From assembly GCA_964022095.1 (NCBI GenBank), contig CAXHZO010000025.1, forward strand, positions 1 to 28,371: a stretch of 28,371 bases of DNA, read 5' to 3'. This DNA comes from an uncultured Arcobacteraceae bacterium (GTDB taxonomy: Bacteria > Campylobacterota > Campylobacteria > Campylobacterales > Arcobacteraceae). Made by a program: the position numbers. The stretch's first letter is position 1. The number at the start of each line of letters is the position of its first letter. This document shows, one piece after another, positions 6,001 to 27,000 of the stretch.

Positions 6001-9000
6001 AGTGAAAATGCTTTGAAATTTTTCATGTCACTATTTCTTCCATCTTTTACTTTAACCCAAATAGTAATATCTTTTTCATTTGTATGGGCTTCTAATATAA
6101 ATCTTAAAAGATTTAAGTCTATTTCTTTGATGCTTGACTTATTTATAGATATGTCACTACAGTTAATTTCTGAAGACTTTTGGAATACATTCCATGCTAT
6201 TTCTTGTTTATTATCTATAATTGATCCAATTGATTGAAATGAAGAAATTTTTTTTCTTCCATCTTTTACTATATAAAAATCTAAAGTTTCATTAATCTTA
6301 GGATAAATACCTTTTTGTGGTATATCATGGTTTGTTCCAAAGAAAAATTTGTATCCTTCCATATTAACTTTTTTGACATTTGAAGCAAATATTAAACTTG
6401 CAAACAAAGTTATAGTAAGTAGTAGTTTCATTTATTTTCCTTGTGATTTATTTATAATTTATCATCTGATATTAGATGTTTGAATTTAAGTTTGCTAAAA
6501 AAGCTTCTGCAAAGTGCTAGTTAGTAGTTTGAAGATAGGTTTATAAAACATATTAAAAAAGATAAGAAGTTAAAACCTCTTATCTTAAATTAGTGAATAA
6601 ACCACTTGATCTTTCCATTTATTTTTTTTGCTTTGACCTCTTGTGAATCCCAATACATTTCAATCTTTTTTTGCCAATCATATTTCCAATATCTTACTTT
6701 ATAAGTATTTTCTTGATTTCTTACTTTATATAGTTTTTTGATATATCCAAACTCTTTAACAGCATTTGCTCTTTTAAGCCCTGTTCTAAAGCTACTTATT
6801 TTATTTGCTGCTTGTTTTAGCGTTCCCATAGAAGTATGTGGAGCAAGTTTTTTTTGAGCACTTACATCTCCTGAGTAGCTAGCTTTACTAGATACTTTAT
6901 GCCAAAAATCTATTGCTTGGTATGGTGTATCAAACCCCCCTGCAAATAGTGATGAAGTTAGTAGTAGTCCTGCTAGTAGTAGTTTTTTCATTTTTATCCT
7001 TTTTATATATTATTATATTATTATATTATTAAATGCATATAAATAACTATGCTCTAAATCCAAATTTACCAAATTGTTGTTGCATATTTGTAGCCATTTG
7101 CGAGCCTGAGTCTAGTTTGTCTACTCCTACTAGTTTATATACAAAGTTAGGCATTTCCATGATTAGTTTCCACATTAGATATACTGCTATTAAACTAGAG
7201 AATATAAGCAGTAATTCTCTAATAAAAGTAAATATAAACACAGGTAAAAAGTCGCTTATAGATTCATCAGATAAATAAAACTGCTCTTCTGCCATAAGCA
7301 TAAATAACTCTTGGAAAATTGAGTATAAAAACAGAGATAAATATACAGCAATAACAATCAAAGTCGGTTTTAAAAATATAGTAATAGCAGTAACTAAAAA
7401 ATCAAATATCTTTCTAGCTTGGCCAGTTGTTACTGCAAAAGCTACCATAAAAGGAGAGATAAAAGAAAATATTATAAGCTCATACAAATACATCACTATA
7501 ATAACTCCAATAGCTATAAAAGAGGTGATAAAAGGCAAAAACTCTATTATATATCTTATTAAAGATGATGTTAGATTTAGGGCTTTTACTTCTGTTGATA
7601 CTTCTGCTGATTTACTAGTATTTTCTCCTAAGGGTAGCTTTTGAGCTAAGGCTTCAGTGTTTGTTTCTCCTAAGTTTTTTATAAAAGTTGATATTTGAGA
7701 GAAACCAGGTAGAAATCTATAGGCATTTTGCGATAAAAGCTTAGCTATTTCTTTTTCTGTTTTATTATCTTTTGAGCCTTGGGCATTTGGATTTAAAATA
7801 TTTGCTAGCCAGTCTCCTGACTCTTCTACTTTCCCTCCTTCTTGTTTTATTGCTTGGGCATTTGCTTGGTTTATATTTGCTCTTGTTATCATATTTCCTG
7901 GTACAAAATTTTCATCATACTTAGCTAAAGAGCTACTTTTATCAACTCCTTGCATAAATGAGATTTTTGTAAGAACTTGTACTGTTGGGGCTAAGATAGC
8001 ACTATACCAGCCTAGCTCTTTTACTCTTTTATCTAGATGGTCTGTCATATTATCTATTCTATCTTGTATGATATTTGTTTCATAGGCTGCTTTTATTCTG
8101 TTTAAGTTGTGGTTTGTTTGCTCATACAAGGTTGTAGCTAGTTTATGTCTTTTTTCTATGTTTCTACAGCCAATTAGAGTTAAAGTATACTTTCCATTTG
8201 AGCTTTTTATCTCTTCTTTTTGTGCTATTTGTTCTTTGTTTATATGTTGAAAAGTTATTAGGTCTTTATATCTATCTTTACACTCATCTAATGTAGGTTC
8301 CGTTTGTTTTTGTATAAATTCTTGCTGGTCTTTTGTTAAAAGAAGATTTGCTTCTGTTTTAACTCCACTTATTCCTACAGTGTTGTAGACTTTTTCCATG
8401 TATGTACTCATTGCAGTATTATTAGCTCTATCTGCTATTGATGAGCTTTCTGATACAAAGTATTTCCAGATATTTTGAAATAGGGTTGAAGAGTAGCTAT
8501 CATCTAATCTCATAGGAATAAAAAATATAACAGCAGCTAGAGTAATAACTGCGATTTTAGATTGCCAAGGCTCTTCAAATGCCAAAGTCTTTTTTGCCAT
8601 TTTTTTAAAGGCAATCCTAGATATATAAACTAACATAAAAAATAAAGATATAAATACAAAGATATAAGAAACTATATAGTCATAGATATTATCCATACTA
8701 TAAAATAAATCAATATAATAAGATAAATTATCTTGGGATAAAGTATCAATAGAGTTTAAAAGAGAACTATCTAATTCTAATCCACCTTCTGATGTTAGTT
8801 TATATATTGCATTTGGGTCTTTTTTTACCACTGTTCCATCTATTGATTGGGCTATGTCTATTATTTCATTATCCAAGGTTGCAAGACCACCTAAAAACCT
8901 ACTTAGTGTAATAGTACTGTTGTCATAAGGCTGTAATGTCACCTTTGATATAGAATTATTTTTACTATATTTTTGGCTTATTAGGTTTTCATTATTATAA

Positions 9001-24000: not shown

Positions 24001-27000
24001 CATCAGTAAATGTTTTATTTTCTTCATGCGTTTAAATCCTGAGTTTTCTTTTTTATATTTAAAATAAGTTTCCCAAATAAATCAATTATCCAAATATTAA
24101 ATTCATCTCCTCTATAGGATTTAAAAAATTTTTTATATCCTATCATTAATGCAAAAACAGTTATTGTTAAATAAAAGTTAATAGATTTCTCAAGTAATTC
24201 TATTATTATAAAATATGTAACAATAGACATAATTAGAGCATTTTTTGAAAACAAATAATATATAAAAGGTAGTTTTATTCTATAAAATTCATTATATATT
24301 ACTTCATCAACACTGTATTTCTTTTCATCCATTTTTTTCCTTTATTAACCTATAGCCTGAATACTAGAGTTAGAATTGTTAGTTTCATTATTTTGTGAAG
24401 ATTGAGCAAAAGAGGGCTTGTATTCTTCTTGGGAGTTAAAAGAGTCTAAATTAAAATTAGGATTAATTTGAATACTAAATATCTCAGTAGAAGATAAAGA
24501 ATTGCCTTCGTTAGAAATAACCTTATCTTGATACTGAGAAATAAATTGTTTGCAATAGTTATTTTCAAAAGAACTAGACAAATCAGTACTAGATAATAAA
24601 GTAAGCTTGTCTTGTGTAGTATCTAAAGAATTGATTTGAGTAAAAAGATTATTTATATTTTCTAATTTTTCTTCTTTGTTAGATTCAAAATCATTGATGT
24701 ACTCATTAACTATAGTTTCAAAATCTTCTAACCCTTTCATATCTAAAGAGGCTCTAATGCTATTTAGATCTAGTTGTCTAGCAGCCTCATATGTAGCATC
24801 AACTCTTATTCCTTGAGTTGTAGGATTATCTATATAATATTTGGTTTCTTCAAAGAATCCTTTTAAATCTTCTTTTGTTATATCACCATTTGCTGTAAGG
24901 GTATCTGACATTTTATTTATTAGTGCTGCTGATGATGAACTATTTAAAGATAATCCATATTGATTATGATAATCTGCAAGCATCAACTTTTCTCCATCTG
25001 ATAGTTCAGTATTTAGCCTTGTCTCAACATTATCTATATGCTCTGTTATTTCATTAACAGCTTTTATAAAATCTTCATTTATTTTTTCTTTTCCATAGTC
25101 TGAACTTAGTGCTTGATTAATTTCATTTATTGTCTCAGAAGATAAAGAAGTTGAATCTCTAGCTACAGTTAAGTCATCCTCAATATTTAAATAATATTGT
25201 GTTCCATATTCATTATCTAAAATATCTTTTATTAAAGCTCTTCCATCACTATTAACTGATAAATCATATTGATGTGCTCCAAAAGACCATCCTGAGTTTC
25301 CTGTTCCTGCATGAGATAGCATATACCCATCTGAAACACCTCCTAACTCATTTTTTACTAAATTCTCTGCAACAGCATATTTATAATCATCTGTTATATT
25401 GTCTAATCCTTCAAAGTTTTGCCATGTAGCCATAATTAACCTCCATAACAATATTTTGATGTAAATTCAGCCAACGAGTTTAAACTAACTTCTTCGTTGT
25501 CCCTTAGCTGGCCTATTTTATATGCATATGCTTGGTTCTCACATACTTTTATAGATATTTGTTTGTCATTTTTTGTAGCTTGGCATATTGCCCCATATCC
25601 GTAATTTATTTTACCTGCTAAGTTTCTGATGAGTTTAGAGCAAGAAGTAATATTATAATCTGCATATCCATTTTTAATTTTTTGAGGATTTTCATTAAAA
25701 CTTTTTGTTTGTTTTATTGTTTTATCTTCAATAGTATACGAGATATTCTCTCCAGTATTGCTTTTGAAGTTAAATGAACCTTCTTTATTTAGATCATTTG
25801 TATTTGTACAACCAGTAAAAATAGTTAAAAAAATAGCTAATGAAACAATTTTTTTCATGATTTCCCCTTTTAAATAATATAGAAAGATTTTATCTTATTA
25901 AATATTTATTTATTATTAAAAAATCAGAAAAAAAATTATTTTAGTTCATGCTTTGGGTACTATTATTTTGAATTGTATTTGATTGTAAATACATGTAAGA
26001 ATTTTCATATTCTGTATTTTTAACTGAATTTAATGATTCGTAATGATTCTCAATTATGTCATTCTTCTTATTATTTAATATATCTTTTGCATATTCATTG
26101 GAAATAATAGTATTTAAATCTAAATTATTTAAGGCTTTAATTTTATCATCTAAGTTTTTTATTTCTTTGATATTCTCTAATGTTTTTTTGAACTCTTTTA
26201 CCTCTTCTTCTTTATTTGTGTTTTCTATAAATTTAATTCCAAAGCTTTCAAAGTTATCAAGTTTTTCGTCAAAACTGTTTTCTTGTTTTTGTAGTACCTC
26301 TTTGACATCATTTATATTATATTCAATAGATTTATTATCATTAGTATTAAATACAAAGTTTTCTATTTGAGTTCTTTCATTGTCCCAATCTTTTATAATT
26401 ATATTACCATTGTTTTGTAAATTACTCGTATCTTGGATATTTATTATTAAATCATTGTCTTTTTTAGTAAAAGTAAGCATATCTGGTGTTATATTATTGT
26501 GAAATTCTATTGTGTCATTACCACTTCCATATTTGTTTATTGGACTTGCTCCTTCATATATTATATCTTTGCCATCTCCTAATTTATAATAATATATATC
26601 ATCTCCTCTACCACCATTTAGATAATCATTTCCTTTGTTTCCTTCTAAATAATCGTTTTGATTTCCAGTAGTTATAATGTCATTTTTTAGAGATCCATAT
26701 ATTGTATCTTCACTTATTTTTCCAAAGCTTGAGATAAATTTACCTTTGTCTTCTTCATAATATTTTGCATCATCAATTTTGATATGTCTATTATCATCAC
26801 TTATATCTTCTGCAAAGTTTATATTTGAACTTTGTATAGAAGGGTACATATCATATTTCACTAGAGTATTAAATCTTTCAAGTTTATCTTCTAGAAACTT
26901 TTGTGAATAGTTTTCTGGATTTAATAATCCATTATCAGAAGCTTTTTGAATAGAACTTTCATCTTTATCTGTTAAAAAAGCAATATTATTTAGAACTGCA

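Follow-up and report, generated by a model that had tools for sequence, protein, structure and literature searches.

Genes for a probable, highly diverged type IV secretion system in a chromosomal island of a marine Arcobacter-like bacterium, shared with plasmids typed as non-mobilizable

The described systems closest to this locus are R388 Trw and Agrobacterium VirB-VirD4 (MPF_T, type IVA) and R64 (IncI1) Tra/Trb and Legionella Dot/Icm (MPF_I, type IVB). Comparisons were also made with the HerA ATPases of HerA-NurA repair and of Sir2-HerA and DUF4297-HerA defence, and with the X-T4SS of Xanthomonadales, a bacteria-killing system with XVIPCD effectors. The window, the whole analysed stretch of 28,371 nucleotides, came from a marine Arcobacter-like bacterium and carried one long operon of 17 kb. 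Like R388 Trw and VirB-VirD4, the island system has a two-domain VirB4, which was the best structural match, a coupling protein (T4CP), a small pilin-like protein with two helices and, in the VirB1 role, a lytic transglycosylase (SLT). A protein of VirB8-like bitopic topology, a lipoprotein and exported proteins also lie within one operon. However, the Pfam VirB4 model CagE_TrbE_VirB did not match the island ATPase, no VirB11 was found, and profile-profile comparison against the VirB proteins of Campylobacterota did not reveal VirB8, VirB9 or VirB10. The island system has approximately 22 genes compared with 11, with an additional AAA+ ATPase and a paralogue of the VirB4 N-domain. The likeness to R64 and Dot/Icm lay in the many genes, most without homologues elsewhere, a large polytopic protein as TraY/DotA, an ATPase profile that aligned with TraU, a T4CP whose best NCBIfam model was TrbC, and Atlas leads to DotH and TraO/DotG. 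In addition, a distant Caminibacter relative has PilN-, T2SSE- and T2SSF-type pilus genes, as in R64. In contrast, the T4CP scored 110 bits with TrbC, far under the 800 that the model requires, none of the membrane and outer-membrane proteins of R64 matched significantly, and the window has no TraJ/DotB-type ATPase. In a quick tree, TraU was approximately 4 substitutions per site away from each member of the ATPase family. The class of the system was best read as unclassified. We consider it likely that 7047-24332 encodes the mating-pair-formation module of a highly diverged T4SS, one that originated on a plasmid and is now located in a chromosomal island of approximately 40 kb.

Every open reading frame of at least 99 aa in 7047-24332 was on the minus strand. 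The block consisted of 22 tightly packed genes with intergenic distances of −43 to +95 nt, and nearly all products besides the ATPase and SLT were membrane-bound or exported. A Kyte-Doolittle scan gave hydrophobic segments in 12 of the 22 products, and a signal-like N-terminus was judged by eye in eight others. The first-pass annotation had described a T4SS gene set missed by Pfam, NCBIfam and PHROGs and common to plasmids called non-mobilizable, and this description stands. Pfam matches were again few, and the earlier count of 6 in 34 proteins was replaced by 8 of the 35 window frames at E ≤ 0.01. Four of them passed the gathering cut-off (HemolysinCabind twice, SLT and AAA). Within the block, it was reached by two genes, the SLT transglycosylase and the AAA+ ATPase. 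NCBIfam (all under cut-off) and PHROGs each matched five frames as before, now of 35. Among 59 homologues of the structural genes, no Pfam family was found above cut-off.

The ATPase of 795 aa (13103-15490, minus strand) combines a helix at its N-terminus with an N-domain of the VirB4 type and a P-loop domain; the latter carries the Walker A motif APTGSGKS (residue 382) and the Walker B motif IYVIEE (residue 667). K388, E672 and E692 were invariant across 85 sequences. Its predicted model (pLDDT 91.8) matched full-length R388 TrwK/VirB4 in Foldseek with E 1.7e-19 over approximately 870 aligned columns, and TrwK/VirB4 made up all of the first 11 chains among the matches listed. VIA gave Z 24.5 against full-length TrwK with 625 residues aligned, and Z 30.5 against the C-domain of Thermoanaerobacter VirB4. 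The profile was aligned to R64 TraU by hhalign over 400 columns (97.3%, P 2.7e-11). The VirB4 kinship proposed earlier is thus better founded, because a confident model was compared by Foldseek and VIA and the profile was aligned to TraU. The predicted structure and the sequence showed an ATPase of the VirB4 class that has two domains and whose catalytic residues are intact. The HerA match, earlier at E 1.8e-4, became E 1.5e-17 with a deeper profile, the best P-loop match, where TrwK gave E 2.1e-7. By sequence profile, the ATPase domain scored 66 bits with HerA, 45 with TraU and 33 with TrwK. However, the structural alignment with HerA (Z ≤ 22.4) covered only the ATPase half, approximately 350 of the 795 residues, whereas the N-terminal 345 residues aligned with VirB4 and not with HerA. 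The neighbours of the ATPase were secretion genes rather than a nuclease partner. An exhaustive search gave 126 clusters at 50% identity (E ≤ 1e-3), and the family is therefore less rare than the 13 proteins first stated.

The adjacent gene encodes a stand-alone paralogue of the VirB4 N-domain (312 aa, 15487-16425, minus strand), which was 30% identical to residues 2-344 of the ATPase (E 7e-32). This protein lacks an ATPase domain, carries a membrane helix of its own at the N-terminus and was 45% identical to the 309-aa orthologue P0080. The paralogue was missing from two small plasmids, where SLT adjoins the ATPase. The lytic transglycosylase itself (193 aa, 16428-17009, minus strand) matched Pfam SLT above cut-off (E 4.2e-13) and NCBIfam VirB1 and IagB under cut-off. 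The AAA+ ATPase of the classic clade (377 aa, 22565-23698, minus strand; Pfam AAA E 2.9e-19) carried the motifs GIPGTGKT (Walker A), IILLDE (Walker B) and RRGRFD. Its closest solved relatives were VAT, Cdc48 and p97 (E 3.7e-21), and it was kept at eight loci, including Caminibacter. This Cdc48-like ATPase and the stand-alone N-domain copy are unusual features of the system.

A coupling protein of the VirD4/TraD/TrbC type was shown to be encoded on contig C4. The reported matches to TraG-D_C (E 4.5e-10, above cut-off) and TrbC_conju (E 1.3e-31) were reproduced; the gene lies outside the window, at C4:3109-5004. It also matched TrwB_AAD_bind, DUF87 and SXT_TraD (E 2.1e-19). The T4CP module is separate from the main operon and, from the orientation of the flanks, is probably inverted relative to it.

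The remaining products, all on the minus strand, were examined for structural roles. The block opens with the genes of the 102-aa membrane protein and the 105-aa small coiled-coil protein (23710-24332). By jackhmmer over related loci, the 105-aa gene formed one paralogous family of small coiled-coil proteins with the 154-aa gene (11526-11990) and the 123-aa gene. The last encodes one of three small proteins (123, 114 and 129 aa; 9359-10463) that are exported and have N-terminal hydrophobic segments. The 164-aa protein (21975-22469) has three or four membrane helices and corresponds to the uncalled frame that the first-pass annotation had placed at 21999-22472 and assigned to the gene set. This assignment was supported by a homologue on a C. 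fetus plasmid (E 2.8e-7), and three other plasmids carry a multi-helix gene of equal size at its position. The 250-aa exported protein (21226-21978) had Atlas neighbours in DotH/IcmK (0.88), CagX/VirB9 (0.86) and TraN, and is a candidate VirB9/DotH analogue by predicted structure; hhalign gave P 7e-4 to 2e-3 with the VirB9 alignment and 2e-3 with R64 TraN, none significant. Positions 19763-21217 hold genes for an exported protein of 260 aa and a bitopic, Lys/Glu-rich protein of 217 aa. The 99-aa lipoprotein (19450-19749, lipobox FTGC), with homologues at five loci, is a candidate VirB7/DotD-like outer-membrane anchor; its likeness to R64 TraH/TraI was confined to the signal region.

The 343-aa exported protein (18417-19448) was kept as far out as Caminibacter. 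Its ESM Atlas neighbours were TrbI and TraO/DotG clusters (score 0.89, TM 0.43-0.49), and these models suggested a candidate VirB10/TraO/DotG analogue. It had no PDB profile match, and hhalign to VirB10 was not significant. The 211-aa exported protein (17779-18414) was kept on plasmids, with BLASTP identities of 40-47% at six loci, and had only weak matches, to the FliH N-region. The 253-aa protein (17009-17770) has a short cytoplasmic N-terminus, a single membrane helix and a periplasmic domain, with a conserved alignment. Its topology is a lead to VirB8/DotI; no PDB profile matched, and hhalign gave VirB8 a probability of 2%. The pilin-like protein (138 aa, 11948-12364) has a signal peptide and two hydrophobic helices in a VirB2-like topology, and matched Pfam T4SS_pilin under cut-off (E 6.2e-4). 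Within its family, one homologue matched T4SS_pilin (E 0.012) and another the NCBIfam Mbov_0395 pilin-like model (E 1.8e-4). The 209-aa protein (12400-13029), with four hydrophobic segments, was joined to this family by jackhmmer, and one of its homologues matched T4SS_pilin at E 0.036. The Ser-rich exported protein of 363 aa (10438-11529) is kept on plasmids, with BLASTP matches at seven loci and no family match in Pfam and NCBIfam scans. The 769-aa polytopic protein (7047-9356) has a lipobox-like N-terminus, approximately six hydrophobic segments by Kyte-Doolittle topology and two large loops, and its plasmid homologues are 711-813 aa long. It is a candidate VirB6 or TraY/DotA analogue; Pfam and NCBIfam gave no match, and hhalign to R64 TraY was not significant. 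When the structural candidates were compared by hhalign with alignments of VirB8, VirB9 and VirB10 and with R64 proteins, the probability was at most 26%, and no structural part other than VirB4, T4CP and SLT was significant. The VirB8-, VirB9-, VirB10- and VirB6-like and pilin roles therefore stay leads, and the pilin and VirB6-like assignments had been called weak before.

If these roles are correct, the VirB4 hexamer would dock onto inner-membrane proteins of polytopic or bitopic type, the 769-, 253-, 209- and 164-aa products, and drive pilus assembly from the 138-aa pilin-like protein. The cell wall would be opened by SLT, and the exported 250-, 343- and 99-aa proteins would assemble into the complex of the outer membrane. 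The coupling protein would pass the substrate to the channel. The Cdc48-like ATPase might stand in for VirB11 and perhaps unfold substrates or remodel the complex.

The gene set was found on plasmids of Campylobacter, Helicobacter and Caminibacter. The ATPase was present on 14 plasmids, and all 14 were typed non-mobilizable, which extended the earlier observation on five of five. A hidden T4SS gene set sits on plasmids now labelled unable to transfer. On each of two 31-35-kb plasmids, which also carry ArdC-like genes, 19 island genes had BLASTP matches in nearly the same order; one further plasmid carries a topoisomerase and a giant SNF2 protein. For these plasmid-borne copies, the substrate would most likely be plasmid DNA, passed by conjugation. 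In line with a mobile lifestyle, the distribution was patchy, with the gene set in 16 of 401 Campylobacterota genomes and, exactly as first counted, in 2 of 184 family genomes. The island flanks, reported to be less than 1 kb apart in a same-genus genome, were 659 bp apart in the sole one compared (G401), where the insertion site is empty. The contig joins, first drawn from synteny, are also backed by 55-nt end overlaps, otherwise by synteny alone. Library scans of the window, C4:1-9000 and C29:1-8000 found no relaxase, VirB11-type ATPase, integrase or tRNA, in agreement with the first three having gone unrecognised before, and no replication gene or ArdC was found in the island. Since relaxase, replication gene and integrase were not found there, the substrate of the island copy is uncertain.

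It is conceivable, though improbable, that the island copy has ceased to move DNA and was co-opted for protein export, for example of the flanking toxin-like cargo into rival bacteria. Besides the lack of a detected relaxase, this would fit five island proteins (a Gly-zipper protein, a 368-aa protein, a lipase-like protein, a Tle1-like phospholipase and an RTX protein) with unrelated N-terminal parts and a common C-terminal tail, EYKPSF...NNSNSS-IQ-x-x, a candidate delivery signal read by the coupling protein. Three of them have in common a module of approximately 110 aa (84-94% identity). Immunity-like small genes for membrane proteins or lipoproteins follow each toxin-like gene, and TssC was not found in the genome. 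The arrangement resembles the X-T4SS, where varied N-terminal domains, a conserved C-terminal module and immunity-like genes occur beside a T4SS. However, Pfam scans gave no match to a known XVIPCD model, and C-terminal signals and RTX repeats are the hallmark of type I secretion. Two full HlyD-type genes are present in the genome, and an HlyD fragment lies within the cargo at 4782-5044, which also suggests type I secretion. The tail was limited to these five among 3971 open frames of at least 80 aa in the genome, but the motif was derived from the same five proteins. Cargo and tail were found in none of 1239 frames on the related plasmids and elements examined, and they are therefore outside the conserved system.

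A decaying remnant of an integrated plasmid, with its T4SS genes out of use, was judged equally unlikely. The missing integrase, relaxase, replication gene and ArdC would agree with decay, as would a T4CP module moved from its plasmid position. Elsewhere, the VirB4 homologues of genomes G053, G363, G145 and G453 have an in-frame stop, and the C. fetus plasmid copy is split by IS elements and has no T4CP. In contrast, all 22 block genes were open, with lengths that agreed with plasmid homologues where such exist, the catalytic residues of all three ATPases were intact, and overlaps typical of translational coupling were retained. Near-identical DNA was also present in marine runs from several studies.

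The mating-pair-formation reading was preferred by far over another envelope machine around a HerA/FtsK-type ATPase, such as a DNA-uptake apparatus or defence complex, which is very unlikely: the best profile match was to HerA chains of defence systems, PHROGs gave a terminase-like match and most partner proteins have no recognisable fold, but the N-terminal domain and the full-length model aligned with VirB4 only, each complete element pairs the ATPase with the coupling protein, SLT and pilin-like gene, and a Pfam scan found no nuclease or Sir2 partner in the block.

Beyond the block, a 133-aa exported protein (6590-6991, minus strand) without a counterpart on plasmids is followed by the only strong terminator-like hairpin, at 6586-6559, and the operon probably ends there. 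In the CRISPR array of the host (C11:44711-46329), spacer 22 matched 25 of 25 bases of the T4CP gene of the element in the other family genome, as had been reported.

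The window was a complete contig of 28,371 bp, and all of its substantial ORFs were located on the minus strand. The core block ran from 24332 to 7047 and contained 22 genes with a spacing of −43 to +95 nt, and the sole strong terminator-like hairpin (6586-6559) was found after the next gene downstream of the block. A promoter scan of this AT-rich DNA was uninformative, with 117 sites against 134 expected. On either side of the block (1-6991 and 24345-28371), repeated cassettes of toxin-like genes were present. The host genome was 2.57 Mb in size with 28% G+C, the nearest named relatives of the window genes came from Malaciobacter mytili and Arcobacter sp., and near-identical DNA was present in marine metagenome runs, with no RNA run among those listed. 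The core block is a genuine, intact and very diverged type IV secretion system (T4SS) gene set of plasmid origin. Judging from the predicted structure and the family profiles, this identity is recognizable only through the VirB4 structure, and the sequence similarity to coupling proteins and SLT enzymes is real, though weak.

The first-pass annotation described a T4SS gene set missed by Pfam, NCBIfam and PHROGs, and our searches agreed with this. Only 2 of the 22 core products passed the Pfam cut-off, namely, the SLT transglycosylase of 193 aa and the AAA+ ATPase. T4SS_pilin matched the pilin-like protein with E 6.2e-4 and TraG-D_C matched the large ATPase of 795 aa (13103..15490) with E 0.0094, both below the cut-off. 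Every NCBIfam match of the window products was under the cut-off, and PHROGs gave no useful addition for the core products. In related elements, none of the 59 homologues of 15 structural gene families reached the Pfam cut-off, and NCBIfam gave sub-threshold pilin-like and FliH-like matches only. Representatives of the large ATPase family had no Pfam family at E ≤ 0.001 in 20 of 39 cases, and the remaining ones showed weak, scattered matches to AAA_10, P-loop_TraG, FtsK_SpoIIIE, DUF87/HerA and T4CP models. The VirB4 model CagE_TrbE_VirB matched none of the 39. This model, VirB8, CagX, TrbI and T2SSE gave no match in the window at E ≤ 0.01, and PF03524 gave nothing across the whole genome.

An exhaustive HMMER search with the large ATPase covered 1.84 billion representatives, and the family comprised 126 clusters at E ≤ 1e-3, 117 of them at E ≤ 1e-10. 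This indicated a discrete family, because no tail of thousands of ordinary VirB4s was obtained. When a profile of 85 members was compared with solved chains, HerA was the best match (E 1.5e-17), followed by EccC, TrwK/VirB4 (E 2.1e-7) and FtsK. Proteins of the HerA family have a HerA-type N-terminal barrel and the HerA ATPase domain, and they are usually accompanied by a nuclease or a Sir2 protein. The ATPase domain of our protein matched HerA, the N-domain of the model aligned with VirB4 instead, and no nuclease or Sir2 partner gene was seen in the core block by Pfam. The AlphaFold model, predicted from the 85-member alignment, had a pLDDT of 91.8 and a pTM of 0.88. In Foldseek, the first eleven chains listed were all TrwK/VirB4 of R388 (best E 1.7e-19, approximately 870 aligned columns, TM 0.51), and the next were the C-domain of Thermoanaerobacter VirB4 (E 2.6e-12) and HerA (E 4e-11, TM 0.30). 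VIA aligned 347 of 373 residues with the VirB4 C-domain (Z 30.5) and 625 residues with full-length TrwK, spanning model residues 29 to 793 (Z 24.5); HerA chains aligned over approximately 350 residues with Z 22.4 or less. Since only VirB4 aligned with the N-terminal 345 residues, this part of the model corresponded to the VirB4 N-domain fold, which is absent in HerA. The lysine of Walker A and two acidic positions were invariant in 85 of 85 sequences. As predicted by the model, the large ATPase is a VirB4-class protein with an N-terminal VirB4 domain and a C-terminal P-loop domain carrying Walker A and B. The VirB4 kinship had been proposed from Atlas neighbours, and it now has the support of the model comparisons with TrwK. 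One in-frame stop was observed in each of the VirB4 homologues of four genomes (G053, G363, G145 and G453), which may be due to errors in sequencing, or to a system that is decaying in some hosts.

The coupling protein (T4CP) was encoded outside the window, on contig C4 (C4:3109-5004, 631 aa). It matched the Pfam models TraG-D_C (40 bits, cut-off 22) and TrwB_AAD_bind (24.4 bits, cut-off 20.5), and DUF87 was also above the cut-off. Its best NCBIfam models, TrbC_conju (E 1.3e-31) and SXT_TraD (E 2.1e-19), were both far under the cut-off, and Walker A and B motifs were recognized by eye. By these family matches, it is a genuine coupling protein of the VirD4/TraD/TrbC family. The earlier assignment was thus right about the protein, and its place is on C4, not in the window. 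The AAA+ ATPase belonged to the classic clade with VAT, Cdc48 and p97 as the best solved relatives (E 3.7e-21), and it was conserved at 8 loci, one of them on the distantly related Caminibacter element. No VirB11-type ATPase was found in the window by Pfam. Between the SLT and VirB4 genes, a 312-aa product was identified as a free-standing paralogue of the VirB4 N-domain (30% identity to that domain, E 7e-32). Orthologues of approximately 309 aa exist elsewhere, and the gene was missing from both small Campylobacter plasmids. Hydrophobic segments were detected in 12 of the 22 core products by a Kyte-Doolittle scan, and 8 further products had a basic-hydrophobic N-terminus, taken by eye as a signal peptide, with a lipobox in one. 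By these features, the core block encodes an envelope machine.

The remaining structural parts were supported by leads only, and this applied to the VirB9-like, VirB10-like and inner-membrane or pilin roles. ESM Atlas neighbours of the 343-aa protein were TrbI/VirB10, TraM and TraO/DotG clusters (score 0.89; TM 0.43-0.49), and those of the 250-aa protein were DotH/IcmK, CagX/VirB9 and TraN (scores 0.83-0.88). The topologies of the candidate VirB3, VirB6, VirB8 and VirB2-like products fitted, with pilin models matching below the cut-off only. Alignments of 15 families were compared by hhalign with VirB8, VirB9 and VirB10 alignments from 30 Campylobacterota loci, and the R64 tra genes served as a further reference. 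None of the 15 was significant against VirB8, VirB9 or VirB10, with a top probability of 26%. This best profile-profile result was obtained for the 250-aa family with VirB9 (P 7e-4; 13% and P 2e-3 with a deeper alignment), and the same family gave 13% (P 2e-3) with TraN of R64. Nothing was obtained for the 253-aa product with VirB8 (2%), the 343-aa product with VirB10 or TraO, the 769-aa product with TraY, or the 266-aa product with TrbA. Family profiles searched against PDB sequences gave no match for the 253-aa, 343-aa and ~600-aa families. When the 343-aa and 250-aa alignments were used in word-indexed searches, the matches were unannotated relatives only, and viral contigs and genome contigs searched with a single protein gave no related loci.

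The gene set fitted none of the class-specific T4SS models tried. For MPF_T, the VirB4, VirB8, VirB9 and VirB10 family models and VirB11 were all without a match in the window. MPF_I is marked by a TraU/DotO-type ATPase together with TraY/DotA, TraO/DotG, TraN/DotH, TraM/DotI and TraJ/DotB. Here hhalign matched the P-loop domain of the large ATPase to R64 TraU over 400 columns (97.3% probability), and TraU alone was significant by hmmsearch and hhalign in this comparison, which used single R64 sequences and not family profiles. The gene set possibly represents a new MPF class; TraU was the sole outgroup in a quick VirB4 tree. The literature listings searched showed no description of the gene set, as had been reported before.

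The large ATPase was found by tblastn on 14 plasmids with 25-41% identity (12 from Campylobacter, one from Helicobacter cinaedi and one from Caminibacter). All 14 were typed as non-mobilizable, which extends the earlier observation on Campylobacter and Helicobacter plasmids. Of 401 genomes sampled from the phylum, 16 contained the ATPase. Within the host's family the count was 2 of 184, identical to the previous one. The plasmids pLMG-27932-1 (31 kb) and pCORI-1 (35 kb) each matched 19 island genes in nearly the same order. The exception was the T4CP gene with the upstream gene for a 266-aa membrane protein, which on the plasmids had the pilin region on one side and the 363-aa gene on the other. 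Both plasmids also encoded ArdC-like proteins, Rep and Par functions, Fic proteins and a zeta toxin; p16187MP1 carried a topoisomerase and a giant SNF2 protein, and the Caminibacter relative additionally had PilN-, T2SSE- and T2SSF-type pilus genes. As outlined in PMC4027160, the phylogeny of VirB4 defines the T4SS classes, and the typing of plasmid mobility relies on profiles from eight known classes. The family escapes these profiles, which is why whole plasmids from Campylobacter fetus, C. jejuni, C. helveticus and H. cinaedi that are largely made of this gene set are filed as non-mobilizable. Conjugation is the likeliest role on plasmids. Should the gene set work in conjugation, these plasmids would be more mobile than their typing implies, a role open to testing would be gained for approximately 15 uncharacterized protein families, and one more T4SS class, with a distinct set of parts, would be available for study. 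Among these parts would be an AAA+ unfoldase-like ATPase replacing VirB11 and, in the subclade of the Arcobacter type, the VirB4 N-domain as a separate protein.

Several further features of the plasmids were observed. A MobP1-like match was found on pCORI-1 only, in a gene of 165 aa immediately upstream of the T4CP gene (L005:15322-15819; E 6.4e-5, below the cut-off). This gene also gave a sub-threshold match to Pfam Relaxase (E 0.002) and contained an H-x6-P-H-x-H stretch, and no homologue was found in the other elements. A conserved protein of approximately 600 aa with a globular N-terminus and a long coiled coil was encoded near the AAA+ gene on pCORI-1 (L005:28469-30325) and three related elements (L004:27604-29343, L022:7263-9155 and L006:34568-36565), usually followed by a gene of approximately 260 aa. 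It was absent from the island and had no Pfam, NCBIfam or PDB-profile match. The circular plasmid mp1 of C. fetus subsp. venerealis (44.8 kb) carried the T4SS block together with a full phage head, tail and lysis gene set. Its block was broken by IS200/IS605 and IscB genes, and a T4CP match was not found. It is either a mosaic or possibly a phage-plasmid.

In one same-genus genome, the sequences flanking the island on C4 and on contig C29 were only 659 bp apart, in opposite orientations. This indicated that approximately 40 kb was inserted in the host, in line with the flank distance of less than 1 kb previously noted. Stretches of 55 nt at the contig ends recurred: the final 55 nt of the window were the reverse complement of the 55 nt that open C29, its initial 55 nt were identical to C4:1375-1429, and those opening C4 were identical to C4:2118-2172. 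These end matches placed the contig breaks in repeated, inverted cargo cassettes, and the C4-window-C29 joins are plausible from the contig sequences. The T4CP module probably faces the main operon, as deduced from the flank orientation. No tRNA, integrase, relaxase or replication gene was found in the island, and relaxase families gave no match (window, C4:1-9000 and C29:1-8000). Two ankyrin-repeat genes (window 27890-28369 and C29:3-485) were 73% identical, both lacked 5' ends, and they faced each other across the break between the window and C29. This inverted repeat was probably the cause of the break.

Five island proteins with unrelated N-terminal parts shared one C-terminal tail motif. 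Their genes were located at 1163-2566, 24345-25451 and 25941-27893 of the window, at C4:950-2407 and at C29:2149-3930, and a module of approximately 110 aa was common to 3 of the 5 with 84-94% identity. The tail was confined to these five among the 3971 open frames of the genome, and it was found in 0 of 1239 ORFs of related elements. The gene set could be imagined as a ninth, unclassified T4SS class, domesticated in the marine host as a protein-delivery weapon. It would export the five tail proteins (lipases, a Tle1-like phospholipase, Gly-zipper and RTX proteins), which the coupling protein would receive unfolded by the Cdc48-like AAA+ ATPase. We consider this quite improbable. HlyD-type genes were present in the host genome, and two short fragments matching the C-terminal part of HlyD, one with an in-frame stop, were found in a gap between cargo genes (4782-5044, minus strand). 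By its sequence, this region looks like a decayed type I secretion gene within the island. Because of the HlyD-type genes and the HlyD fragment in the cargo, type I secretion was at least as likely as the T4SS for the tail proteins. TssC was absent from the genome.

Only one CRISPR array was present in the host (C11:44711-46329), with 25 copies of a 36-nt repeat. The reported match of spacer 22 to the T4CP gene of the element in the other family member was confirmed at 25 of 25 bases, and none of the other spacers of the array had a match longer than 17 bases in the elements compared. Spacer 3 was perfectly matched (30 of 30 bases) elsewhere in the host genome (C2:375744-375773), as a self-target or a stray repeat-spacer unit. 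In addition, the cargo cassettes were linked by four families of direct repeats of 143-300 nt with 85-97% identity (window 562-1912, 3259-3558, 5070-5543 and 24402-24701). The small genes between these repeats encoded lipoproteins of 189 and 193 aa and proteins of 155 and 167 aa with three membrane helices, and they look like immunity genes.
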